Below are positions 11,137 to 46,613 of a stretch of 64,000 bases of DNA, one piece after another (position 1 is the stretch's first letter; each line of letters begins with the position of its first letter). The stretch comes from Escherichia coli. GTDB lineage: Bacteria; Pseudomonadota; Gammaproteobacteria; Enterobacterales; Enterobacteriaceae. The notes under the pieces were generated by a model, which saw nothing but the letters and a program-made list of their open reading frames with translations, was not told where the DNA came from and searched no databases. Both the position numbers and the translations under genes were made by a program. The DNA lies in NCBI RefSeq assembly GCF_044324785.1, contig NZ_CP172127.1, one strand, 5' to 3'.

Positions 11137-11477
11137 TGGAATGATCTCCTCGAAAATTTATTTACATTACTGGTAAATCGTTAACATGTGTTAATTCGGA
11201 ATATTATATCATAACAGGAAAAATCTCGTCTATTAGAAATAAAAATATTCTAAAGCCATAATATTATATTTAATCTCATAAAAACTAATGTCGTTGGCGG
11301 ATTTTTTTATAATTGTGTTTTGAAAGCATACTTGCTTTTAATATGTGGAAATCATTAAGGCTAGAATAAAACTCGTATCCGCCCCAGGAAGCAAACAGCC
11401 TGCTTTATTGCAGGCTATTTGCTGGATGACTTACTAAATCCTTCACATCTATTCCTGATAAAAAGGAACAGAATTTA

Positions 11478-12932
11478 TTACCGGAACGGCGGCTCATTAA
11501 ATGTTCGTAATTTACGTGAATGCAGTCGGTCGCCTTCTGCGCGCAGCAAATCGATCGCCCGAATGCCAATTTGCAGGTGTTCGGAAATAGCGCCTTCATA
11601 AAAACGGTTAGCCTGACCGGGAAGTTTAATCTCACCATGCAACGGTTTATCTGAAACACACAATAGTGTCCCGTATGGCACGCGGAAACGATATCCTTGC
11701 GCGGCAATGGTTGCACTTTCCATATCAATTGCTACGGCCCGGCTTAAGTTAAAACGAAGTGCAGAAGCTGAGTAACGTAATTCCCAGTTCCTGTCATCTG
11801 TGGTTACCACAGTGCCAGTACGTAGCCGCTGTTTAACTTCCTCACCGGGCCTGCCGCTGACTAACTTGGTAGCGTCATAAAGCGCACGTTGCACTTCAGC
11901 AATGCTCGGAATAGGAATATCGGGCGGCAGTACCGCATCAAGAACGTGGTCATCGCGTAAATAAGCGTGTGCAAGTACATAATCTCCAATGGCCTGGCTT
12001 TCACGTAAGCCACCACAGTGACCAATCATCAACCAGACATCCGGGCGTAGCACCGCCAGATGATCGCAGATGGTTTTTGCATTTGACGGTCCCACGCCAA
12101 TATTCACCAGAGTAATACCCTGACCATCGGCGGTAATTAAATGCCATGCTGGCATCTGGTGTTTTTTCCATGCAAGGTCGGAAATGGCTTCTTCTGGCGC
12201 TTTGGTTTCGGCGGTGATCCAGTTCCCGCCAGCACAAGAAAGGGCAATGTAGGGACTATCAGGGTCGAGGATCTGGCTGCATCCCCAACGAACGAATTCA
12301 TCCACATAACGTGTGTAGTTGGTAAACAAGACGAACGGCTGAAAATGTTCAACTGGCGTACCGGTGTAATGGCGCAACCGCGCGAGGGAAAAATCGACGC
12401 GGCGCGCATCAAAATGCGATAGCGGGGAGAATTCCGTTGGATGATAAATGCCGTCTGCAGTTTCATCGCCAATTTGCGCCAGTTCTGTTGTCGGGAAGTA
12501 GCGAGTTAACCCAGCGCTCATTGAGCGATCAAGGGTCAATTCAGAGCCATCGATGACATAAGGATAAGGGATTTCATGCTGCGAGGGTTGCACCGAGATA
12601 TGCGCACCATAATCCTGATACAACAACGTAAGTTGTTCATTGAGATACGAACGAAAGAGAGTAGGGCGAGTAATCGTGGTGGTGTAGCTGCCTGCGTGGG
12701 TAAAGCGACCAAATGCGCGCGTTTTGGGGGGATTGGTTGTGCTACCGTCCCAGGTTACGGTCAGTGATGGATAGACAAAAAGACCTTGTTTGCGGGCGTT
12801 TTCATCAGGTAATTCGCCACTTGTAATATAGTTGCCAATGGCGTTGCGTAAAGCGACTACAGATTGCTCATACAACGCGTCGAGTTTATCCAGTGCCTGA
12901 GCTGGGGTCAGACCGGAGCCCTTATTATTCAT
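11478..12932 (-). CDS. amn: AMP nucleosidase
   Basis: 484-aa product from internal Met (MNNKGSGLTPAQALDKL...) with AGGAGA RBS; the ORF track extends 52 codons upstream. Confidence 0.93.
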   Translation of the reverse strand: MNNKGSGLTPAQALDKLDALYEQSVVALRNAIGNYITSGELPDENARKQGLFVYPSLTVTWDGSTTNPPKTRAFGRFTHAGSYTTTITRPTLFRSYLNEQLTLLYQDYGAHISVQPSQHEIPYPYVIDGSELTLDRSMSAGLTRYFPTTELAQIGDETADGIYHPTEFSPLSHFDARRVDFSLARLRHYTGTPVEHFQPFVLFTNYTRYVDEFVRWGCSQILDPDSPYIALSCAGGNWITAETKAPEEAISDLAWKKHQMPAWHLITADGQGITLVNIGVGPSNAKTICDHLAVLRPDVWLMIGHCGGLRESQAIGDYVLAHAYLRDDHVLDAVLPPDIPIPSIAEVQRALYDATKLVSGRPGEEVKQRLRTGTVVTTDDRNWELRYSASALRFNLSRAVAIDMESATIAAQGYRFRVPYGTLLCVSDKPLHGEIKLPGQANRFYEGAISEHLQIGIRAIDLLRAEGDRLHSRKLRTFNEPPFR

Positions 12933-16299: not shown

Positions 16300-24915
<8,616 letters not shown>

Positions 24916-34426: not shown

Positions 34427-35190
34427 ACATCCTCCCGTTACTTGATAGACCCATAGCCTTCCAGAGAAGTTTTATCCGTCTTGAAATTGGCGTGACTGCC
34501 GCATTGTTTCTGTCGCAGTTGACGTACTGGACAAACAGAACAACTGACGACGGCTGGGTGTATAAAACCCAGGATGAGTGGGAAGAGGAAACAGGGCTTT
34601 CACGATACGAGCAGGAGGGCGCCCGCAAAAAACTACGTGGTCTCGGCGTCTTGCTGGAACGTAAACAGGGCTTGCCTGCCAGGCTGTACTACAAAATCGA
34701 TAATGATGTGTTGTGCCAGCTACTTACGTCCGCATACAAGGATGCGGAAAAACCACATACAGGTGAGGGGAAAACCACCAGGCCTGTACGTGGAAAACCA
34801 ACAAACATTCTTACAGAGAATACAACAGAGATTACTACAGAGATTATTACTGATGGTGAATCGGCTGACGCCGACACCCAACAACCTGCCGACCAGAGAA
34901 TAAATTATCAGGTGATACTCGATACCTATCACGAGATTTTGCCAGAGATGCCACCAGTGAAAATCCTCACTGACGGCAGAAAAAAACACCTTCGCACTTT
35001 CTGGAAAAAATTCAATTTCAATGAGTCCCGTTGGCGGGCCTATCTGGAATTTATCGGTGGCAATTGTCGCTGGATGCTGGAGGACAGGCCAAATGGCAGG
35101 GGAGGATTCTGGCGGCGTAAAAATCTTGATTATCTGATTACCGAACGCTGCTACGTTTCGGTTAAGGAAGAACGCGCAAATGATAAATAA
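34423..35190 (+). CDS. phage replication initiation protein (O-like, N-terminal winged-helix)
   Basis: 255 aa, immediately precedes and overlaps DnaB-like helicase gene. Confidence 0.6.
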   Translation: MNILPLLDRPIAFQRSFIRLEIGVTAALFLSQLTYWTNRTTDDGWVYKTQDEWEEETGLSRYEQEGARKKLRGLGVLLERKQGLPARLYYKIDNDVLCQLLTSAYKDAEKPHTGEGKTTRPVRGKPTNILTENTTEITTEIITDGESADADTQQPADQRINYQVILDTYHEILPEMPPVKILTDGRKKHLRTFWKKFNFNESRWRAYLEFIGGNCRWMLEDRPNGRGGFWRRKNLDYLITERCYVSVKEERANDK

Positions 35191-36595
35191 CGCGATTGCA
35201 CTGTACAGCGTTGACGCAGAACAGGCTGTTCTGGGCTGTCTGATGCTGAATACCGACCACGACAGAACCAATGCGGTATTTGCGTTACTGAAACCGGAAA
35301 CGTTTTATATCAATGCGCATCAGGTTATCTACCGGGAGATCAAAGGATTATTTCAAGCTGATAAACCAACTGACCTGATAACACTGACCGAACTGATGGA
35401 ATCGAAGGGGCTGTATGAGCGCGTGGGGGGATTCGCATACCTGGCTGAAATGAGTAAGGCGGCGATACCGGCCTCAATGGTCAACTACGCGAAAATTGTA
35501 CGTGAAAAAGCCATTCTTCGTTACGCCGTGGAAAAGTTGAATTCTTGTCTGGAGATTATGACCCAGCCTGCAGATATGACTGCTACTGACAGGATCAGCA
35601 CCGTTCAGCAAGTGATTGGACAGGTAGCTGAACATGCCCGTACCGGGCATAAGGGCGGTTTGCGTCCGGCAAGTGAAGTCGTCGATGACTGGATAGATGA
35701 CCTTGATCGCCGTTTCAATGATCCAGCACATGCAGCCGGACTAACGCTCGGAATCGAAAGCCTTGATCGCTTAATGGCACCAAAGCAGGCGTTAAGAGGC
35801 TCATTGGTCGTTATTGGTGCCCGGCCAAAAATGGGCAAGACAGCCGCGTTTAATAAAATTGCGGTGCATTTTGCTCTGAATCATCGTTTGCCGACGCTGG
35901 TATTTAGCCTGGAAATGACTGACAGAAGTCTCATTGAACGCATGGTTGCGCAGGAAGCAAAGGTCAATTCGGAGATTTTTTATCTTGGCCCTAACGATGA
36001 ATCTGAATTGAGTCTCGCAATAGCAAAGGCGGGGGAGATTGCCGAATCCAACATGATGATTGACAGCACGGCAGGCGTAACCCTTGCGCATATTGTCGCT
36101 GAATGCCGAAAGGTTAAGCGGATGCATGGCTCGGTTGGCCTGGTGGCAATTGACTATTTGACGCTGATGAAAACCGAAGCGGCAGAACGTCGGGATATTG
36201 CGTATGGCGATATCACAACCGGTTTGAAGAACCTGGCAAAAGAGCTGGATTGTGTTGTGGTCCTGCTGACGCAACTCAACCGAAAACTTGAAGAACGAGC
36301 AGATAAGCGGCCTAACCCGAGCGACAGTAAAGATACCGGGCAGATCGAACAAGATTGCGATGTCTGGATTGGCCTCTATCGTGATGCTGTTTATAACGAA
36401 AATGCCGACCCAAATCTCATGGAAATGTTGCTACGTCTGAACCGCGAAGGACCATCGGGAACAGCCTACGCCCTGATGAAAAATGGCTCAGTTATTGATA
36501 TCAGCGATGAGGAGGTTTATCGCCGTACCAACTACCGCTCAGAAAAAAATAAACGTTATTCCCGTAGCGATAATTCTCGCACAAATGAATTTTAA
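35180..36595 (+). CDS. replicative DNA helicase, DnaB-like
   Basis: 471 aa; N-terminal DnaB domain (AEQAVLGCLML...), Walker A GARPKMGKT, Walker B VAIDYL. Confidence 0.9.
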   Translation: MINNAIALYSVDAEQAVLGCLMLNTDHDRTNAVFALLKPETFYINAHQVIYREIKGLFQADKPTDLITLTELMESKGLYERVGGFAYLAEMSKAAIPASMVNYAKIVREKAILRYAVEKLNSCLEIMTQPADMTATDRISTVQQVIGQVAEHARTGHKGGLRPASEVVDDWIDDLDRRFNDPAHAAGLTLGIESLDRLMAPKQALRGSLVVIGARPKMGKTAAFNKIAVHFALNHRLPTLVFSLEMTDRSLIERMVAQEAKVNSEIFYLGPNDESELSLAIAKAGEIAESNMMIDSTAGVTLAHIVAECRKVKRMHGSVGLVAIDYLTLMKTEAAERRDIAYGDITTGLKNLAKELDCVVVLLTQLNRKLEERADKRPNPSDSKDTGQIEQDCDVWIGLYRDAVYNENADPNLMEMLLRLNREGPSGTAYALMKNGSVIDISDEEVYRRTNYRSEKNKRYSRSDNSRTNEF

Positions 36596-37998: not shown

Positions 37999-38220
37999 AT
38001 GTTTGGCGATAAACTGGAGTTACCACGGAACGGGCGGATAGTGCTCTATATTTCAGATTACAAAGTAACCAGGGCTGAGGTGTTGGAACCGGAAAAACAT
38101 CTGGTCACGTTACCGGACATTATTGAGTTGTATAAGCGGGTCGGATATGTGGACTTGCATCGCGATGATGTTCCCGTTGAGTGTATGGAATGTGAACACC
38201 GGAGGTTTGAAGTTGATTGA
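37999..38220 (+). CDS. hypothetical phage protein
   Basis: 73-aa ORF with GGAGGG RBS. Confidence 0.4.
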   Translation: MFGDKLELPRNGRIVLYISDYKVTRAEVLEPEKHLVTLPDIIELYKRVGYVDLHRDDVPVECMECEHRRFEVD

Positions 38221-38444
38221 ATTGACTTAGAAAAAGCCCGGGGCTATAGTTTCCGCGCAGCCGCAAAATCGGTTGCCGGGATTGGCGTCCCGGATATCTA
38301 AGTGACGCATAGCCGCGTTAGCGGTTTTTTTATGTGTTAGGCACGGCCACATTCGCATTATGGTGGGCTGTGTGGGGGCTTCTGCGGAAGCGCCGGGTTC
38401 ACTTAGCCGGTTACGCCAACCCTGCACAGTTCACCACCAGATGA

Positions 38445-39137
38445 TTGGCGTCGCTGGTGGTGATGAAAAAAACACTAAGTGAGGCCACTGCGATGACAAT
38501 CCAAATATCTGCGGAATCCCTTTCTCCGCTACATCATAACCAACTTCCCGTCATCACTACTGAATTGCTTGCCAGTTTGTATGGCACGGAAGTAAATGGT
38601 ATCCAGCAAAACTTCAAGCGCAACATCGCCAGATTTGTCGTAGGAAAGCATTTTTTTAAGCTGGAAGGTAATGAATTACGCGACTTCAAAAACAGACTGA
38701 CAGATAGTCAGTCAGTTGCTAAACATACCCGATCCCTCATTCTCTGGACAGAACGCGGCGCAGCTCGCCATGCCAAAATGCTGGAAACAGAACAGGCCTG
38801 GGAAGTTTTCGAAAAGCTGGAAGATTGTTATTTTAGCCAGCGTCCAGAGAGGCGGAGTACAACTACCGATGACCGTACTCCCTTACGTGATGCCGTTAAT
38901 ATGCTGGTCGGTAAGAAAGGCATGATGTATCCCGATGCCTACACCATGATTCATCAACGCTTCGCCGTCTCTCACATAGAACAACTGTCACAGACGCAAA
39001 TGTTAGAGGCGATTGAATACATCCACTGCCTGCTACTCGATGAAAATCAACCAACCATTCCAGATCACCACTATCAAAAATGGAAAAGTGACCAGAATGC
39101 GCCATGTTGCCAAAGGCGAACATCTGATGACCTTTGA
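38445..39137 (+). CDS. ORF6N-domain antirepressor / Rha-like regulatory protein; start uncertain, 3' region possibly frameshifted into ORF 39013..39270
   Basis: N-terminal pattern LPVITTELLASLYGTEVNGIQQNFKRNIARFVVGKHFFKL resembles ORF6N antirepressor domain. Confidence 0.55.
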   Translation: MASLVVMKKTLSEATAMTIQISAESLSPLHHNQLPVITTELLASLYGTEVNGIQQNFKRNIARFVVGKHFFKLEGNELRDFKNRLTDSQSVAKHTRSLILWTERGAARHAKMLETEQAWEVFEKLEDCYFSQRPERRSTTTDDRTPLRDAVNMLVGKKGMMYPDAYTMIHQRFAVSHIEQLSQTQMLEAIEYIHCLLLDENQPTIPDHHYQKWKSDQNAPCCQRRTSDDL

Positions 39138-39270
39138 CGCTTTCAAAGAGATCGCTGAGCGGGCAGGGTATCTGGTGATCCACAGCGACAATCTGCGAAG
39201 TATGACACTGGATAAATTGATGGTAATGGGGAAAAAGTCTGCTGTATCCGTTGCTGATTCAGCATTTTGA
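39013..39270 (+). CDS. hypothetical protein or shifted C-terminal part of the antirepressor
   Basis: 85-aa ORF overlapping previous gene in another frame. Confidence 0.3.
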   Translation: MNTSTACYSMKINQPFQITTIKNGKVTRMRHVAKGEHLMTFDAFKEIAERAGYLVIHSDNLRSMTLDKLMVMGKKSAVSVADSAF

Positions 39271-39299
39271 CAGGTTGAATGTTTGGCGCGGTTATACTC

Positions 39300-39377
39300 T
39301 ATTTGCGCTTAAAAAGGTATTTAGTCACAACCAGCACGAGGCCGAATACTCTGTCAAAGTACCGCCCATGTAAAACT
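39300..39377. repeat. decayed copy of the 3' end of the two-TM gene (direct repeat partner of 42901..42978)
   Basis: about 92% identical over ~78 bp to 42901..42978, with a 1-bp deletion that frameshifts the encoded C-terminus. Confidence 0.75.
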
Positions 39378-39447
39378 GTAACGTATGTACTTGATGACTA
39401 AGCTGGCACCAGGTTAACACCAGGCGCCAGCTTGAAGGAAACTTCAG

Positions 39448-40371
39448 TTATTGGTTTCTGAGGAAAGCGATTCTTGAAAGGGTCATTTGCGTCTGGCAGT
39501 CGACCATTTTCTTGACTTCAGCATCTGTTCCCTGCATTGAAACTTTACCGCACATAGCATCCTTAGTTTTGATCCACTGACGCTGAGAAGGCAGCAAATC
39601 TTTTTTCTTCGCCGGGGTTAACTTGCTCCAGACGGTACTCAAATCAGAGTCGGCATTCGCAAATGCCATTCGGGACTGATCAAGGCTGTCAGCTTTTTGT
39701 GGCTGAAGTTGTGCCTGTCTCTCTATTTGCTTCTCCGCCTCATACTTAGCCTGTTCCTGCGCCCTGAGTTGCACCTGTTGTTCCGCTTCAATTTGGCTCT
39801 GTTGGGCATCCTTAGCCTGCTGGATTTTCTGCTGCTCAACGATCGGGTTGATAATAGAAAGTGATGTCAGTAAAGCGGCGCCCACTGATATCGGATTATC
39901 AGAAGAGGTTTTTACAAAAACGTTTTTCTGATCGTCGGTCGCCTGCACGGTGTAGGTGATACGTTTGGAAAAGGCGTTTGCGTTGTTCTCCAAAAACAGG
40001 CTTTCCATTTGCTTGTCGAGATTACGATTAAAATTCTTTCTGTAATCATCAGAAAGCTGGACGTATTCGTTCGCAGGTAGAGTCATCGTCACGGTCCCTT
40101 CACAAGTTTTCATTGTGCTGCCCGTGTCACTTGATGTTGTGGAGATTTCAGAGATGGCTAGTTTGATCTTGTCCAATGTGCTTCGTTTGGTCTGATTAGT
40201 GACATCAGGGTATTTATCGACCTGTTCAGAGAGTCCTTCATAAGCAGATTTTTTTAATAAATCCATAAGCGCTGACTGGGTTATTTCCGAAGAACAACCG
40301 ATCACATCTTTTTTGTTATCACAGCCTGTAAGGGCAATGGCGAGTAAGAGTACTGAGTATTTTAATCTCAT
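39448..40371 (-). CDS. lipoprotein with C-terminal DUF1311/LprI-like domain
   Basis: signal peptide plus lipobox LTGC; Gln-rich coiled region; C-terminal SQRQWIKTKDAMC...C pattern. Confidence 0.65.
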   Translation of the reverse strand: MRLKYSVLLLAIALTGCDNKKDVIGCSSEITQSALMDLLKKSAYEGLSEQVDKYPDVTNQTKRSTLDKIKLAISEISTTSSDTGSTMKTCEGTVTMTLPANEYVQLSDDYRKNFNRNLDKQMESLFLENNANAFSKRITYTVQATDDQKNVFVKTSSDNPISVGAALLTSLSIINPIVEQQKIQQAKDAQQSQIEAEQQVQLRAQEQAKYEAEKQIERQAQLQPQKADSLDQSRMAFANADSDLSTVWSKLTPAKKKDLLPSQRQWIKTKDAMCGKVSMQGTDAEVKKMVDCQTQMTLSRIAFLRNQ

Positions 40372-40996
40372 GAATTCCCTTTAGAGTAAGGATTGGTTTT
40401 TAAGACGCGGTCTGTAATCAGTTCCGAGAGCTACAGTAAACAACGCTGAGCACTGAACGCATCACAGGCAAGGTAAAGGCGATATCGGCAAAGGCTGTGA
40501 AACCTTTAATTCAACAGATGGAAACGGTATGCGCAGGATCCTGTAACGACGCTCCCAAAACCGGAAACCTGTAAGGCATGTTTTCGCTGCTGAACTTAAT
40601 ATACGAACCTGCACTATCATGAACATATTTTATATCGTTATACCCCGAGTGATTGTGCCCGGCAATGGATAGTGTCCTGGAGGAACTATTTCTACTGTAA
40701 AAGGTAGACATTTAATTTCAGTGTGGAATTATTCCCTGCTGTTAATAACCATGGCTCTATATGGCACCGAGCGGACTAGTTAACTTGCCTGAAAGCCGCT
40801 ATGAGTGAGGAGCGAATATTGGCACGAGAGGATACCTGAACCATTTTTTGGACATGCGCTAAAAGCGAATGATTAGTTTTATCGGAATATTTACAGTATA
40901 CTTACAAGGCAAGCTTGGCGTGCCGTCTTGGGCGAGATTGCTTAAATTATTTTGTGGATATATCATTCAAACAAAAGATAATAAAATGAGGTTGTT

Positions 40997-41194
40997 ATGT
41001 CATATATTCGCGTAGAGAAAGATGGCCTTCAGTATGAAGCAGAATACTTCCGTAAAGAGGATATGGTCACAGTCTTTGGGGTTAGAGGAGGGCATTCCAG
41101 CGTGGTTCTAAATGGAATGACAGAAGTCGCGGCTGCTCGTACTGCGTTACGAAATCTTATTAGAGAAAATCAGGTTGATCCTCTAACTGATTAA
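40997..41194 (+). CDS. hypothetical small protein (AT-rich cassette)
   Basis: 65-aa ORF. Confidence 0.35.
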   Translation: MSYIRVEKDGLQYEAEYFRKEDMVTVFGVRGGHSSVVLNGMTEVAAARTALRNLIRENQVDPLTD

Positions 41195-41398
41195 AAATAA
41201 GCCATCTTAACTGAGAGCATATTTTGATATAATTTAGATTAAATCTATTTTGAAGGTTAGTTTGGGATGAGAAGATTACATCAAAACCGTTATTACTAGC
41301 AATAAGTTGTGTAAATCAAATAATACATAATCATGTGGTAACATATACTAAGCGTAGTAAAGTTTTTATATATTCCTGTAACTTTGTGAGAAACTTCC

Positions 41399-42064
41399 AT
41401 GAAAGCCGACAACTTAAGAATTATAGAGAATGGCAAATATGTTTTCGATATGTTCTTGGATACTGGTGAATTTTACTATACAAGTCATGCCTTTGACACG
41501 AGAGAAGATGCAAAAAGCTGGATGGAAGAATGGCAGATTTGGGCAAATAATGTATCGAGTGGGAAAGTAAGTAGTATTTATTATATTTTACAAGTGCCTG
41601 ATACTTGGGCCGGTTCTTCAGATAAAAATAACCCTTACTCGGGACTTTATGTGAAAATAGGGCGTTCCAATAATGTGCTAAAAAGGTTGTCTAACCTGCA
41701 GACAGGTGCATTTGGTCAATTAATATTACACGCTTTGGAACCTGGTGGTTCAGAAAAAGAAAACTATCTTCATGAAAAATTTAGCAACGAAAGACGTCAA
41801 GGTGAATGGTTTGTTTGTACTAAGGAACTTACCAAGCATATATTTACAACATGGTTTAAAAACAAAATGCTCCCACCAGAACATCAAATAAAAATAATGC
41901 AGCTCGCAGAAAGAATAGGTATTTATTCGCATGTTCATACACTAATGGGGGGGAAGCCAGACTTAGTAAACCCATCTATTAGTGAACCTTGGGAATGCGA
42001 AAAATATGTTTTGGTTGATATGATTTATAGCTCTTTAGCAAAGCAAGTTAATCATAAAAAATAA
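41399..42064 (+). CDS. T5orf172 (GIY-YIG superfamily)-like protein
   Basis: 221 aa; core GLYVKIGRSNNVLKRLSNLQTG...ENYLHEKFSNERRQGEWFVC matches T5orf172/MUG113 pattern. Confidence 0.5.
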   Translation: MKADNLRIIENGKYVFDMFLDTGEFYYTSHAFDTREDAKSWMEEWQIWANNVSSGKVSSIYYILQVPDTWAGSSDKNNPYSGLYVKIGRSNNVLKRLSNLQTGAFGQLILHALEPGGSEKENYLHEKFSNERRQGEWFVCTKELTKHIFTTWFKNKMLPPEHQIKIMQLAERIGIYSHVHTLMGGKPDLVNPSISEPWECEKYVLVDMIYSSLAKQVNHKK

Positions 42065-42384
42065 AGTGTTACATTTTAACCATACAATTATTGATTCACT
42101 AATGAAGAGGTGATTTAAACGTATGAAGTTTTAATAAGCTCCAAGAATATTTTGTCATACATGGGTTAAAGAGTTATATAATAATATCTGCTTCTGGAAT
42201 ACAGCAGACAAGCACCTGCAGATAAAGGTCTGCTGAGAGCGAGAAGCGGATCATACGTTGGAAGTTGTTTAGGCAAATACGTTATAAACGTATTTGATTA
42301 AATTTACTTGGATCATAGTCTTCAATAACGCTTTATTATATTGTTTTTCATGCAGCAAACAGGTTTACAGGTAGGTAATAAGCT

Positions 42385-42789
42385 ATGAGTGGATGGAAAG
42401 AGTCTTTTACATTAGCAGAACAGATACAATTAGCATTAAATTTAGGTTATGAGGCTGTACCAGATGAAGAGGCATATACTGGGGCATACTTCATTAAAGG
42501 TGGTAAGAAGTGGATCTTTAACATCATCGGTCTCAAAAAGACATTGAATATATCTTCAGATGATGAACTAAGAGGGCAGGATTATGATGTTGATATGTAT
42601 TTCGAAATTCGCCAAAATTGGGCACAATACCAAGATATGATCTTTGGAAGCGAAGATATCACTCCTTCACCTAAAAATGAACTTACTTCAATTTACCATG
42701 ACCTGCAGGTAACGGATGAACCCAGGGAAATGGTGTATCTTTCTGATGGGATGTGGCTGGATCCCAACGGACGAATTGTACAACGATAG
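42385..42789 (+). CDS. hypothetical protein (AT-rich cassette)
   Basis: 134-aa ORF. Confidence 0.4.
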   Translation: MSGWKESFTLAEQIQLALNLGYEAVPDEEAYTGAYFIKGGKKWIFNIIGLKKTLNISSDDELRGQDYDVDMYFEIRQNWAQYQDMIFGSEDITPSPKNELTSIYHDLQVTDEPREMVYLSDGMWLDPNGRIVQR

Positions 42790-42898
42790 CACTCGAACAC
42801 ACTCAGTAATCGTCTATAAGGCCAGCACTTGTTACTTGGTCATTTGGGGTTGCTGGTCTTCTCCATTAAATCGACTAAAGTCTGTTCCATAGAGAGAG

Positions 42899-43504
42899 TT
42901 ACTTGCGTTTAAAAAGGTATTTTGTCACGACCAGCACGAGGCCGAATACCTCTGTCAAAGTACCGCCCATGTACAACTGGAGCGTTAAGTCTTTAAATAC
43001 AAGCCATTCAGCACCAGTGGCAAAAAATACACCATTCATTATCAAAAGCTGGCAAGCAAGGATAATAAGGAACCATTTGCCATAGCGTTTTTTTAGATCG
43101 ATTTCAGCTTCAAAATCTTTGTTGTTGAGTTGTTTGCGCTCATGCTCAGTATCAAGTGAATTCACCTGTTTCACAGATGTGAACTCGGTCAAGATTTTAC
43201 TCTCAGTACGGGTGACTTGTTGAGAGGGGGTAGGAATTGGAATTCTTTTGATTGACGCAGCTACAGCCATTTTGCGAGCTTCGGCAGCTCTTTTTCTGGC
43301 TATTCCGTGAATACGGGCAGACGGTTTTTTTGGAGCATGCGAAACCTTTGTCTGAGGTGAAGTTTCGTCAGGAGACTGAACCGGAGTTTCATCCTCCTCC
43401 GGCTCAACCTCTTCTGCTAACTGACGGTGTAGGTTGAGGGAATCCTTCAGTCGGCGTGCAACTTCCTGTTTGAAACGGCTGTTAAAATCGTCATCCGATG
43501 GCAT
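42899..43504 (-). CDS. membrane protein with hydrophilic N-terminal region and two C-terminal TM helices
   Basis: 201 aa; TM segments WFLIILACQLLIMNGVFFATGA and LYMGGTLTEVFGLVLVVTKYLF; starts 10 nt after peptidase gene. Confidence 0.6.
   Translation of the reverse strand: MPSDDDFNSRFKQEVARRLKDSLNLHRQLAEEVEPEEDETPVQSPDETSPQTKVSHAPKKPSARIHGIARKRAAEARKMAVAASIKRIPIPTPSQQVTRTESKILTEFTSVKQVNSLDTEHERKQLNNKDFEAEIDLKKRYGKWFLIILACQLLIMNGVFFATGAEWLVFKDLTLQLYMGGTLTEVFGLVLVVTKYLFKRK
42901..42978. repeat. intact direct-repeat partner of 39300..39377 (encodes last 26 codons of the two-TM protein)
   Basis: reverse-complement translation gives QLYMGGTLTEVFGLVLVVTKYLFKRK*. Confidence 0.75.
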
Positions 43505-43513
43505 TCTAAAGCG

Positions 43514-44002
43514 TTACCCCAACCTCAAGTTCTTTAAACGATAAGTCATCGCATCGTCAGATACGCCAAAATGATGCGCCATTATATAACTTGGTTGGCC
43601 GTCAGCGTGCAGTTTTCTGACCTCATCTACCGGCATCAGAAGTTCTGCTGCGAACTTGTTCGCAAAAATTTCATCAGGATGCGTTCCGGCGCTTGCGGTT
43701 TCGCCACGTAAATCAACGTACTCATATTCATCGCTATGCGATGCTTGCCGGGCGATGTAATGCCCCAACTCATGCCCACATGAAAAACGTTGACGAACTT
43801 TGTTGTCATCACTGTTTAGAAAGATCGCTGGATCTTGATCTTTTTGTTTAATCAGTGCGCCAGAAACTTTCCCAGGAAGATCGGTAATAAAAACATCTAA
43901 TCCCATGTCGTGAGCAATTTTCGCTGGATCAACAGGGAAACCACGCCCGCACCAGAACGTGTCCAGCACTCGCCGGGCGTGCTCTCTTGGGTTGGTAGCC
44001 AT
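43514..44002 (-). CDS. ImmA/IrrE-family (M78-like) zinc metallopeptidase, stand-alone
   Basis: 162 aa; HEXXH as CGHELGHYI and downstream EIFANKFAAELLMP. Confidence 0.7.
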   Translation of the reverse strand: MATNPREHARRVLDTFWCGRGFPVDPAKIAHDMGLDVFITDLPGKVSGALIKQKDQDPAIFLNSDDNKVRQRFSCGHELGHYIARQASHSDEYEYVDLRGETASAGTHPDEIFANKFAAELLMPVDEVRKLHADGQPSYIMAHHFGVSDDAMTYRLKNLRLG

Positions 44003-44569
44003 AGCTCCTCCAGTTACTGCATTACGATTATTGGTCGAAATATAGACAACATGTTCCGTACCACATTCCTGTAAAAGTGCAAATTCTGCACTTCTGGTAC
44101 GATATTAACTGTTAGTAGTAAAGTCTTCCAGATAAATCACTTTAAAATCGTGTGAATTGCTTGCTTTTTACGCTGCATTGTGGATGGCTCAATGTTTCCA
44201 GTAAAAACATACATGATAATCATGACATTAGTGGTTTTTTAGGCGTCCATCTGTTTCTTAAAAAAATGGATGCCACAAGCGCCCGGATGAGAACAGGAAG
44301 GGAAGGCTATTACATGTGTGATTTATTACATCTGTAAAAAAATACAGATCTAACCTGATCTTTTCATTGAAGTTTTTCTTGGTCCTGGATAGGATCTGGA
44401 GGTTGCGAAGATTTTAGAGTCGCATCAAAGGGAAAGCCCTGACAGCGCCAACTGTCAGGGCCATACAAAAACATCGGTTAATGCTTTCGTTGAGATCTCG
44501 GTTTGGGAGATTACCTCAACCGGGATCCCGTGTAAAGCATTCATTGCCGAAAATGATATAGGTCAATGA

Positions 44570-44848
44570 ATGAAACACATCTGTAAAAAGTCACATCGTC
44601 ACGACAGTATGTTTGATGTTCTTTCCGCAAATCAGGGGAACGTTGGGCGGCACAAATGTTGTGGATGTGCCTATGATAAAGGTATGTGGCACGCATTAAT
44701 TGGCGTTCCACGTGCGGTTGATGACTCTGTTTTAGGTGATTTGCCCGAAAGCCAGGCCGGGCATGTACGTCATAAAGATGCTTTTGAAGCATATAACATG
44801 GGATATGACCATGGGATGCATAAAAAAGCCTACGGCATGGCCTCATAA
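44570..44848 (+). CDS. hypothetical Cys/His-rich small protein
   Basis: 92-aa ORF followed by a clear terminator. Confidence 0.4.
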   Translation: MKHICKKSHRHDSMFDVLSANQGNVGRHKCCGCAYDKGMWHALIGVPRAVDDSVLGDLPESQAGHVRHKDAFEAYNMGYDHGMHKKAYGMAS

Positions 44849-44868
44849 CCAGGTGTAACTTATTAACT

Positions 44869-44896
44869 AACCCGCTTCGGCGGGTTTTCTTTTTTA
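44869..44896 (+). terminator. rho-independent terminator
   Basis: CCCGC-TTCG-GCGGG hairpin followed by TTTTCTTTTTT. Confidence 0.7.
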
Positions 44897-44966
44897 TAGA
44901 ACCCTGCGATGTGAAAACGAATAATAAATTGTGCAAATAGTGCAGTTTTTATTATTCGAGGTAATT

Positions 44967-45608
44967 ATGAAAACCTTCTATGAGGGCTGGCCTGAAACTT
45001 TCGTTAGCCGGTTAGATATGTTACGGGCGTTGGATGATCGCGGTTCGACCCGGAGGCTCTATCTTGAGCGGACCGGAGCAATATTTGGCGCTCTGGCAGA
45101 AGAGATACGTACAGCCGTTGCCGGGCATCCTGAAACTGACGCGAGTGAACTTGATATCGGGCCGCTATATCGCTATTACAAACGTGGAGAAAAGGGGGAT
45201 CCGCTGGCTGACTTACTTATTAAATTGGCTCCACCAACCTGTGAACGGGTTCGTATATCTCCTGAAGTGTACACAATCCCGTATCTGTTTTTTGCACTGT
45301 TGATAGCGCAAGGCGCTGACAACGATGCCCGAGATTTTTTCAATATGATGATGCGACCGTTGATCATCGCCTACCGCTTCAAACAACTGGCGCGCTACCT
45401 TGGCACGAAGGGCGGAGGACGACCACAGCACAGATTAAAAAGTGAAGCCATTGAACTGGCTGATCGTTTTTTTACTGAAAACCCGACTGCGCCATTATCG
45501 CGTGGTGTGCAATACATATCCGGTATTTTTGTGGCGAAATACTCCGATCCACCTGCAGCCTCGACGATTAGAAAATGGTTAATTTCAATTTACAGGAGTG
45601 ATAAATAA
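44967..45608 (+). CDS. hypothetical protein
   Basis: 213 aa from MKTFYEGWPETF with GAGGT RBS. Confidence 0.45.
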   Translation: MKTFYEGWPETFVSRLDMLRALDDRGSTRRLYLERTGAIFGALAEEIRTAVAGHPETDASELDIGPLYRYYKRGEKGDPLADLLIKLAPPTCERVRISPEVYTIPYLFFALLIAQGADNDARDFFNMMMRPLIIAYRFKQLARYLGTKGGGRPQHRLKSEAIELADRFFTENPTAPLSRGVQYISGIFVAKYSDPPAASTIRKWLISIYRSDK

Positions 45609-45759
45609 TGACCATAAACGGTTTAATCCCCTATAAAACCGTTTAATAAAATTCACGACGTGAATATAATTGTTCATTATTCCCTCATTGTATCTGGCGT
45701 TATGACAAATGCCATAAAATACTGTATAAATGTACAGGCGGTGGCGTTAGGGGGAAGAC

Positions 45760-45939
45760 ATGAATATTCAAGAATCTATAGGCGAACTACCGGAAACATG
45801 CCGGGCTGTTATCAAGCGTAAGGACGGACACATCGTTGGTGTGCGTGTTCTGACTGATGATGAACGGATTGCCAGCCTGATGGCGTTTCTCGAGTTGGCA
45901 GAAATAGCTGGATATACTATTACACCCCCTGACGCGTAA
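45760..45939 (+). CDS. hypothetical small protein (59 aa, below track threshold)
   Basis: manually translated MNIQESIGELPETCRAVIKRKDGHIVGVRVLTDDERIASLMAFLELAEIAGYTITPPDA; GGGGAAG RBS. Confidence 0.35.
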   Translation: MNIQESIGELPETCRAVIKRKDGHIVGVRVLTDDERIASLMAFLELAEIAGYTITPPDA

Positions 45940-46016
45940 AACACGGTATAATATCGGTGCTGGATTGAACACCCGGCACCATTTTCTGAACACTGCCGCG
46001 CCACCTGGAGTTAACC

Positions 46017-46613
46017 ATGGCGCAGCATTCATTTATCAGGGTATCCGGCGGTTCGCTAATACCCGCGACACCAGACACGCAACGCTGGTTGACTGAACGA
46101 GTCAAACCAGGTGCTGTTGTGTATGCAGATTTCAAACAGGCGCGTAATCCCGCGTTTCATCGTAAATTTTTCTCACTTCTCAACCTGGGCTTTGATTACT
46201 GGCATCTCTCCGGAGGGGCTATTTCTCCTGCAGAGCGCGAACTGGTTCACGGCTACGTTAAGTTACTGGCTTATTACGGTGGGCATGGTGATGTCATGGC
46301 TGAGCTGGCTGATCAGTATCTTCTCGATGAGTCGGAAAAGCGCGCGGGGAATATCAGTGCGGTTAAGTCGTTCGAGGCGTTTCGCGCCTGGGCGACTATG
46401 GAAGCTGGATTTTATGACGTTCATCAGATGCCAGACGGCAGTGTGATGCGCGTACCTCGTTCAATCTCGTTTGCTGCGATGGACGATCTTGAGTTCGGTC
46501 AACTGTATTCAGCCGTTTTAGATGTGCTGTGGAATTATATTTTGTTCCGCACGTTTGCCTCTCAGGAGGCCGCTGAAAATGCCGCCGCGCAGCTGCTGGA
46601 TTACACATCATGA
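46017..46613 (+). CDS. DUF1367 phage protein (YbcN-like)
   Basis: FIRVSGGSLIPA...ARNPAFHRKFF closely matches YbcN-type proteins. Confidence 0.7.
   Translation: MAQHSFIRVSGGSLIPATPDTQRWLTERVKPGAVVYADFKQARNPAFHRKFFSLLNLGFDYWHLSGGAISPAERELVHGYVKLLAYYGGHGDVMAELADQYLLDESEKRAGNISAVKSFEAFRAWATMEAGFYDVHQMPDGSVMRVPRSISFAAMDDLEFGQLYSAVLDVLWNYILFRTFASQEAAENAAAQLLDYTS

Follow-up and report, generated by a model that had tools for sequence, protein, structure and literature searches.

The accessory region described here lies in a stretch of 64,000 nucleotides from Escherichia coli contig NZ_CP172127.1 (assembly GCF_044324785.1), referred to below as the window, and belongs to a lambdoid prophage. Its left flank is an antirepressor gene, and its right flank is a gene for a protein with two transmembrane (TM) helices, followed by an ImmA/IrrE-type peptidase gene. 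The slot between these flanks holds a lipoprotein gene and an AT-rich block with three open reading frames (ORFs), as well as an additional, orphaned copy of the 3' end of the TM gene. The features of the slot are given below by their positions in the window; hp1 and hp2 are two 24-bp palindromes that form the boundaries of the cargo cassettes.

38445..39270, plus strand: antirepressor gene of the ORF6N/KilAC type, which flanks the slot on the left and is present as two ORFs (38445-39137 and 39013-39270).
39299..39385, minus strand: proximal repeat, read as the orphaned 3' end (28 codons and the stop TAG) of a second TM allele, with a 1-nt deletion and non-coding here.
39448..40371, minus strand: LprI/DUF1311-family lipoprotein gene (Pfam LprI, E 4e-7; PHROG 5094).
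40753..40817, plus strand: inter-cassette element 1, with a degenerate hp1 (40753-40776, TGGCAC), an 18-nt linker and a degenerate hp2 (40795-40817); nhmmer E 2.5e-18.
40795..42209, plus strand: cassette A, running from hp2 to hp1, AT-rich, with the 65-aa ORF and the GIY-YIG protein.
40997-41194: 65-aa ORF of cassette A.
41399-42064: 221-aa GIY-YIG/T5orf172 (MUG113) protein of cassette A (Pfam MUG113, E 1e-9; T5orf172, E 9e-7; PHROG 8130).
42186..42251, plus strand: inter-cassette element 2, with an hp1 variant (42186-42209), an 18-nt linker and hp2 (42228-42251); nhmmer E 4.7e-7.
42228..42876, plus strand: cassette B, with the 134-aa ORF; the right-hand hp1 and the ~250-bp flank of relatives are lost.
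42385-42789: 134-aa ORF of cassette B.
42899..42985, minus strand: distal repeat, the 3'-terminal part of the TM gene in functional form (second TM helix and stop).
42899..43504, minus strand: TM gene, encoding 201 aa with two TM helices at the C-terminus (PHROG 5346); it flanks the slot on the right.
43514..44002, minus strand: ImmA/IrrE-type zinc metallopeptidase gene (HEXXH; PHROG 87, E 1e-29), transcribed with the TM gene.

The BLASTN comparison of 39200-39460 with the whole window aligned 39300-39378 with 42900-42979 at 74 of 80 positions (92.5%), with one 1-nt gap and E 8.9e-28, while the second-best match was 13 nt long (E 0.43); MAFFT gave the same alignment, and chance similarity was ruled out (E 9e-28). 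A repeat search split the pair at the indel (39300-39349/42900-42949 and 39349-39384/42950-42985) and found it to be the sole direct repeat longer than 21 nt within 38000-46500. The direct repeats of ~78 bp and ~92% identity reported in the initial annotation are thus confirmed, and the similarity extends slightly further, over ~86/87 nt, reaching 39384 and 42985. The abrupt end of homology noted there for the inner edges is also seen. The left edge coincides exactly with the stop codon (minus strand; TAA in the distal copy, at 42899-42901, and TAG in the proximal one) and the right edge is codon -28 of the TM gene, past which the proximal copy meets the 3' flank of the lipoprotein gene. The Rfam search of 38-46.5 kb matched neither the repeats nor the hairpin elements, but only the isrK and C4 RNAs described below.

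The distal copy encodes ...TLQLYMGGTLTEVFGLVLVVTKYLFKRK*, the C-terminus of the 201-aa ORF (42899-43504, minus strand); it had been taken for the last 26 codons of the two-TM protein, which is correct as to the gene end, the number being 28 codons and the stop. In the proximal copy one C is missing (CGAATA-CTCTG) and there is no long ORF. With this C restored, it reads TLQFYMGGTLTEVFGLVLVVTKYLFKRK against TLQLYMGG...KRK in the distal copy, and 8 of the 87 nucleotides are different between the two, changing a single amino acid (Leu to Phe in the proximal copy); seven of the eight differences are silent, one of these being the stop (TAA versus TAG). Such near-silent divergence indicates that the proximal copy was still a coding sequence when the two diverged. 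The 1-nt deletion is common to E. coli E62 (L198), but is absent from the proximal copies of strains 22KM0354 and SK1144 and of the IMG/VR locus L010, indicating a late, lineage-specific lesion. The previous description of the proximal copy as frameshifted and non-coding therefore holds for part of the lineages only, among them those of the window and E62.

The arrangement of the window was found in 17 of the 5426 complete E. coli genomes searched (~98% identity), and the segment 39100-40771, comprising the antirepressor end, the proximal copy and the lipoprotein gene, is contiguous in ~440 of them. When relatives and IMG/VR loci are compared, five states of the slot can be distinguished: the window type, the lipoprotein gene with a 232-aa gene, a lipoprotein gene stub with three genes in addition to PD-T4-3, a block of four genes (5.4 kb), and an empty slot. 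The common ST131-type (sequence type 131) prophage (e.g. SK1144, L002) agrees with the window up to 40771 and from 42877, with a single 232-aa gene replacing the AT-rich block. Locus L010 retains the TM remnant and a 126-bp stub of the lipoprotein gene (ending at 39573), followed by PD-T4-3 (11013-11840 of that locus; PADLOC E 1.7e-137), a validated anti-phage GIY-YIG protein, and by three genes for small membrane proteins or uncharacterised products. In the IMG/VR locus L005 only 13 bp of the remnant precede the 5.4-kb block, which includes SMEK-domain and methyltransferase-like proteins. The remnant is 86 bp long in the window, L001, L002 and L010, and 13 bp long in L005 and E. coli EC28.

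A genuine hotspot for cargo, as the initial annotation had proposed, therefore lies between the antirepressor gene and the TM/ImmA genes. The GC profile also bears out the AT-rich block mentioned there (31-39% over 40950-42600 versus 45-55% in the flanks). The two repeats, however, are not the cassette boundaries that they had been taken for: relatives exchange just 40772-42876, keeping the antirepressor, the proximal copy and the lipoprotein gene, and other lineages break at 39311 or 39573. Identity to the E. coli relatives is 98-100% over the cargo and the distal copy (98-99% for the distal copy itself), 92-95% over the TM body (42986-43504) and 99-100% over the ImmA gene, a profile that shows the patchwork typical of lambdoid prophages. 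The loop between the TM helices is especially variable (FATGAEWLVFKD versus IADGAGKLEFED), and the variability of the TM gene body suggests diversifying selection or allele shuffling. The cargo of the window had no PADLOC defence match (the GIY-YIG protein was marginal, E 4e-3) and no convincing NCBIfam family, and the 134-aa ORF had no Pfam, PHROG or PADLOC match. Given the position in the slot and the analogy with PD-T4-3 at the same place, it is a reasonable guess that this cargo may function in phage exclusion.

Alignment of the boundaries across the cargo types yielded a repeated ~70-bp element consisting of two 24-bp palindromes of 9-6-9 structure, hp1 and hp2, 18 nt apart. Their sequences are GTCCGCTGT-GAGCGA-GGAGCGGAC for hp2 and GTCCGCTCC-TGGCAC-AGAGCGGAC for hp1. 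An nhmmer model built from element copies in relatives located the element in the window (40751-40826 and 42185-42252), at either end of the L005 cargo and in the intervals between all cargo genes of L010, where an hp1-hp2 element separates each of the three genes beside PD-T4-3. The elements sit at the swap boundaries 40771 and 42877. At element 1, homology to the SK1144-type prophage stops at 40771, four nt past the hp1 spacer, and this hp1 is also the right end of the lipoprotein gene segment, the left end of which has no recognisable site and is joined straight to the TM remnant. Element 2 comprises the hp1 variant ATCTGCTTC-TGGAAT-ACAGCAGAC and the hp2 GTCTGCTGA-GAGCGA-GAAGCGGAT; past cassette B, relatives can be aligned again from 42877, a position 22 bp outside the TM stop. 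The exchange boundaries formerly assigned to the repeats are thus the palindromic sites at 40753-40817 and 42186-42251. All hp sites of the window are degenerate, and a relaxed regular-expression scan of the whole window for additional hp1 or hp2 copies gave 15 occurrences against a shuffle mean of 15. Cassette A was found in 17 E. coli genomes with 99.4-99.5% identity, always in this slot.

The element occurs in 977 of the 5426 genomes and is always intergenic. It is present in a P2-like phage between the tail-fibre-assembly and tail-sheath genes, in genomic islands and in a Rac/Qin-like prophage; the exact hp1 pattern is present in at least 120 IMG/VR contigs and at least 120 genome contigs. 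Both palindromes flank fun(Z) in phage P2 (NC_001895), with hp1 towards G and hp2 towards FI. A sentence of a review (PMC8987985), citing Nilsson, Karlsson and Haggard-Ljungquist (2004), states that inverted repeats flank fun and enable site-specific exchange. Full-text searches of the literature with the motif returned no relevant paper, and keyword searches returned no description other than that sentence. The two-site cassette system is under-described, although at least partly described in 2004. Among relatives, cargo is shared between unrelated backbones: the cargo of L002 is 87% identical to that of the P2-like L099, and two cassettes of L010 are 98.4% identical to the cargo of the P2-like L122.

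Comparison of the arms shows where one sequence gives way to the other. In hp2 the left arm belongs to the backbone (GTCTGCTTT in two P2-like phages with different cargo) and the right arm to the cassette. In hp1 the cassette supplies the left arm together with the spacer, and the backbone supplies the right arm. Where single-nucleotide polymorphisms (SNPs) in the arms resolve it, each junction lies ~1 nt or closer to the 6-bp spacer. A cassette is accordingly the unit hp2-genes-hp1, and the full ~70-bp element is the junction of two cassettes. Since the sequences of relatives switch within the 6-bp spacers, the exchange at hp1 and hp2 is probably conservative and site-specific, and a 200-aa tyrosine recombinase would be the enzyme involved. 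Turnover of cargo in the slot would then run on cassettes bounded by hp2 on the left and hp1 on the right, and not on the repeats.

The gene of this recombinase is located near elements in strains Nissle 1917 and 1EC187, the two copies being 95.5% identical. The protein (WP_001305361.1) matches Xer-like NCBIfam models and PHROG 216, and its HxxR, H and Y motifs are readable, Tyr183 being the putative catalytic tyrosine. Among 64 IMG/VR loci encoding its relatives, 24 contain the elements. An hp1-like site lies 20-22 bp past the recombinase stop in 5 of 14 loci examined, and an hp2-like site 40 bp before the start in three others, a spacing that suggests that the recombinase gene occupies the linker position between hp1 and hp2. 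This is association and not proof, and the enzyme may be regarded as a candidate for acting on these sites. A tblastn search for the small recombinase found nothing in the window; with the sites decayed and this enzyme missing, the two cassettes of the window are probably fixed, immobile relics.

It is plausible, though tentative, that hp1 and hp2 are heterospecific core sites of the 200-aa recombinase, which would itself be encoded between an hp1 and an hp2, and represent natural recombinase-mediated cassette exchange across the Enterobacterales; single defence or accessory cassettes would shuttle between P2-like prophages, lambdoid prophages and genomic islands, and the window would hold two decayed ones. 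Another possible explanation, somewhat more doubtful, might be that they are terminator-like hairpins or hairpins resembling repetitive extragenic palindromic (REP) sequences, which merely provide short homology for ordinary recombination, as the PeSL units of T4-type phages do. The consensus element folds stably into two hairpins (-19 kcal/mol with DNA parameters), most hp1 loci have no recombinase, and the same hairpin family is found between housekeeping genes in metagenome-assembled genomes (MAGs) of Hyphomicrobium. Both sites, however, have 9-bp inverted arms around an asymmetric 6-bp spacer, each spacer being conserved and distinct from the other; the junctions fall at the spacer where SNPs resolve them; nesting of the recombinase gene recurs, at 20 bp from hp1-like and 40 bp from hp2-like sites; and the arms are conserved by sequence and not by base-pairing.

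Several observations weigh against exchange by the recombinase. The window's own cassettes occur only in this slot (17 genomes), their mobility being judged from relatives, and homologous recombination across 24-bp repeats would likewise place the junctions inside the sites. The recombinase is nearby at 7 of 119 viral and 3 of 120 genomic hp1 loci among the matches listed. Among the 539 distinct hp1 24-mers, compensatory changes at the six outer pairs are almost absent, so that a structure in RNA or single-stranded DNA is not supported by covariation. The REP-like occurrence of the motif between Hyphomicrobium housekeeping genes also counts here. In the Hyphomicrobium MAG contigs (L217, L219, L213 and others) triple tandem hairpins, ATGTCCGCTTT...AAAGCGGACAT, are located between housekeeping genes such as dinB and those for a cytochrome b and a universal stress protein; their arms are the same as those of hp1, one loop carries TGGCAC, and they behave like REP elements or bacterial interspersed mosaic elements.

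The repeats have a role of a different kind. A synthetic "empty site" query, in which the antirepressor end was joined straight to the TM gene, was contiguous in exactly one of the 5426 genomes, E. coli GPEC172. The prophage of this strain is of the SK1144 type minus 3423 bp, with flanks 99.9% identical, and the missing segment is exactly the inter-repeat interval; the single remaining repeat is chimeric, its left part having the SNPs of the proximal copy and its right part those of the distal copy. The empty state was seen in 1 of ~450 genomes with the TM gene or the antirepressor end. Given the near-identical flanks and the 1:440 ratio, the economical reading is that GPEC172 has undergone a recent homologous deletion between the repeats, although its SNP pattern is symmetric and would also fit an ancestral empty site. 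This deletion in GPEC172 is the one recombination event that was observed between the repeats.

The origin of the proximal copy can be considered in the light of three sets of data. A partial gene copy abuts unrelated DNA, its divergence is coding-like, and its junction varies by lineage; in addition, gene stubs are layered in L010, where a TM stub is followed by a lipoprotein gene stub. Variable junction points argue for illegitimate joining. Silent divergence, lineage-variable truncation and layered stubs together point to a separate TM allele and not to a local duplication or an attachment (att) site, in agreement with the earlier view of the proximal copy as a relic of the 3' end of a TM gene at a recombination junction. 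An out-of-register (illegitimate) crossover between two collinear lambdoid genomes probably stranded the TM 3' end beside the antirepressor gene, one parent giving the antirepressor and the TM-gene tail and the other giving the lipoprotein gene, the cassette array and the intact TM and ImmA genes. The repeats take no part in cargo acquisition, and now provide only ~80 bp of homology for RecA- or Red-type deletion of 3.4-3.6 kb. Taken as a whole, a mosaic scar of a TM allele, repeat-mediated deletion and hp1/hp2 cargo exchange is likely to be the best explanation of the locus. What speaks against it is that the two parental phages were not found, and that the lipoprotein gene was never seen with a different left neighbour in the 5426 genomes.

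Many genomic islands use tRNA genes or gene ends and bring a replacement 3' end, and the repeats might similarly be attL and attR of an element integrated at the TM gene, whose 3' end it would target and replace by a new one. The geometry would fit, with an intact end at one border and the displaced end at the other; GPEC172 would provide a precise empty site with a chimeric copy, for which homologous deletion accounts just as well; and the cargo and distal copy, 98-100% identical where the TM body is 92-95% identical, look as if they had travelled together. This is nevertheless improbable: none of the ORFs in 39.3-42.9 kb (the lipoprotein gene, the 65-aa ORF, the GIY-YIG gene and the 134-aa ORF) is an integrase or recombinase, the copies differ at 8% of positions in a coding-type pattern, unlike a shared att core, other lineages (L005) retain only 13 bp of the remnant, and the empty state occurs in 1 of ~450 genomes, where the flanks have 99.9% identity to those of occupied sites. 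A tandem duplication of the TM and ImmA genes in situ, with the left copy then overwritten by cargo except for its last 86 bp, would yield a direct repeat of the right orientation and position, but is very improbable. A decaying copy should change at all codon positions, whereas 8 differences in 87 nt with one amino-acid change indicate divergence as functional genes, and no intermediate with two TM genes was found in the ~450 E. coli genomes with the TM gene or the antirepressor end or in six IMG/VR loci.

The mosaic scar has parallels in other lambdoid phages, for which Hendrix, Juhala and colleagues reportedly proposed a model of illegitimate recombination plus selection, with gene remnants at mosaic junctions. 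The likeness consists in a partial gene at a module boundary, a collinear intact homologue and lineage-variable junctions; the difference is that here the remnant and the intact gene stand 3.6 kb apart in one genome, forming a direct repeat that mediates deletion. The cassettes have the two 24-bp palindromes of the fun(Z) locus of P2, and the two phage families contain identical cassettes, whereas the present ones have a lambdoid backbone, the antirepressor-TM/ImmA slot, degenerate copies of the sites and one cassette without a right site. Integron arrays are similar in having mostly single-gene, promoter-poor cassettes, a conserved structured site and a tyrosine recombinase, here a candidate, but IntI, attI and Pc are all missing, each cassette has two different sites in the form of short perfect palindromes with a spacer, and the genes lie in both orientations. 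A reading of the sites as integron attC was ruled out, as they have no R'/R'' boxes and each cassette has two different sites. The PeSL elements, promoter-plus-stem-loop units of T4-type phages said to have been described by Arbiol, Comeau and Krisch in 2010 as "mobile regulatory cassettes" and thought to act through homologous recombination, are also stem-loop repeats that flank accessory ORFs and mark shuffling boundaries in hyperplastic regions; the elements described here differ in that they resemble recombinase core sites. The hotspots of P2 and P4 likewise have a fixed slot, enclosed by conserved phage genes, with diverse, AT-rich, defence-type cargo, as with PD-T4-3 in L010, and differ from the present slot in its discrete palindromic boundary sites; recombination near cos is the mechanism proposed for them by Rousset et al. 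(2022, PMC9122126), whose paper is silent on flanking repeats.

Two further features lie to the left of the slot.

35180-36595: replicative helicase gene.
38244-38441: isrK and C4 antisense RNAs (Rfam), directly upstream of the antirepressor gene.

The isrK match scored 80 bits and the C4 antisense RNA with its a1 and b1 targets 74 and 53 bits; this region is an antisense control module of the P1/P7 immI type within a lambdoid prophage. The antirepressor gene itself is split by an 11-bp deletion near 39065, where E62 and SK1144 carry TTTTTCTTTTA. Positions 1-200 of PHROG 4792 match the first ORF and positions 199-268 the second, and the gene is intact in relatives (263-278 aa); the antirepressor of the window is probably a pseudogene.

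The lipoprotein gene is matched by annotated CRISPR (clustered regularly interspaced short palindromic repeats) arrays in ~140 E. coli genomes, at window positions 39866-39898, within the gene, and 40336-40379, at its start, one match being perfect over 33 nt and another being 93% over 45 nt. E. coli spacers seldom match known targets, and in view of these matches type I-E adaptation seems to have taken spacers from this cargo gene or from relatives of it.

On the right flank, the ImmA/IrrE peptidase has no helix-turn-helix domain and is encoded directly upstream of the two-TM protein, which has no Pfam family; the pair is conserved as the right flank of the hotspot. The peptidase matches CapP (PADLOC E 1.6e-25) and RmrA of RosmerTA (E 3e-12), the partner genes of both systems being missing, and a toxin-antitoxin or abortive-infection function of the pair is possible. 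NinB-like (DUF1367), DUF1364 and Q genes follow to the right of the ImmA gene. A second variable patch is found at 44259-44868, also right of the ImmA gene, where the region of a 92-aa ORF in the window is replaced by a 77-aa minus-strand gene in the ST131-type prophage. In strain AR_0081 (L003, 8604-10361) an ISL3 element and a ClbS/DfsB gene are inserted before the NinB-like gene.

Elsewhere in the window, the identical 24-mer GCGCGTTGCTGGCATCGGGCGCAA is present at 20274, 20883 and 21492, with a spacing of exactly 609 bp, and this implies tandem repetition with a long period, probably within the gene of a structural protein. Tandem Repeats Finder reported no repeat in 19-23 kb with a period limit of 500, which is below 609.

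The repeat pair is thus an ordinary mosaic scar, and the hotspot idea put forward initially is right while its proposed boundaries are wrong. The pair is also a natural example of a prophage accessory block being lost via a gene and its own orphaned end. The lambdoid hotspot described here and the fun(Z) slot of P2 draw their cargo from one kind of cassette, with the same palindromes as boundaries. The study of the P2 and P4 hotspots (PMC9122126) could only speculate on how defence genes move between hotspots, and two discrete sites with a candidate recombinase make such movement directly testable. If true, the cassette-exchange system would provide a concrete mechanism for the turnover of defence hotspots.

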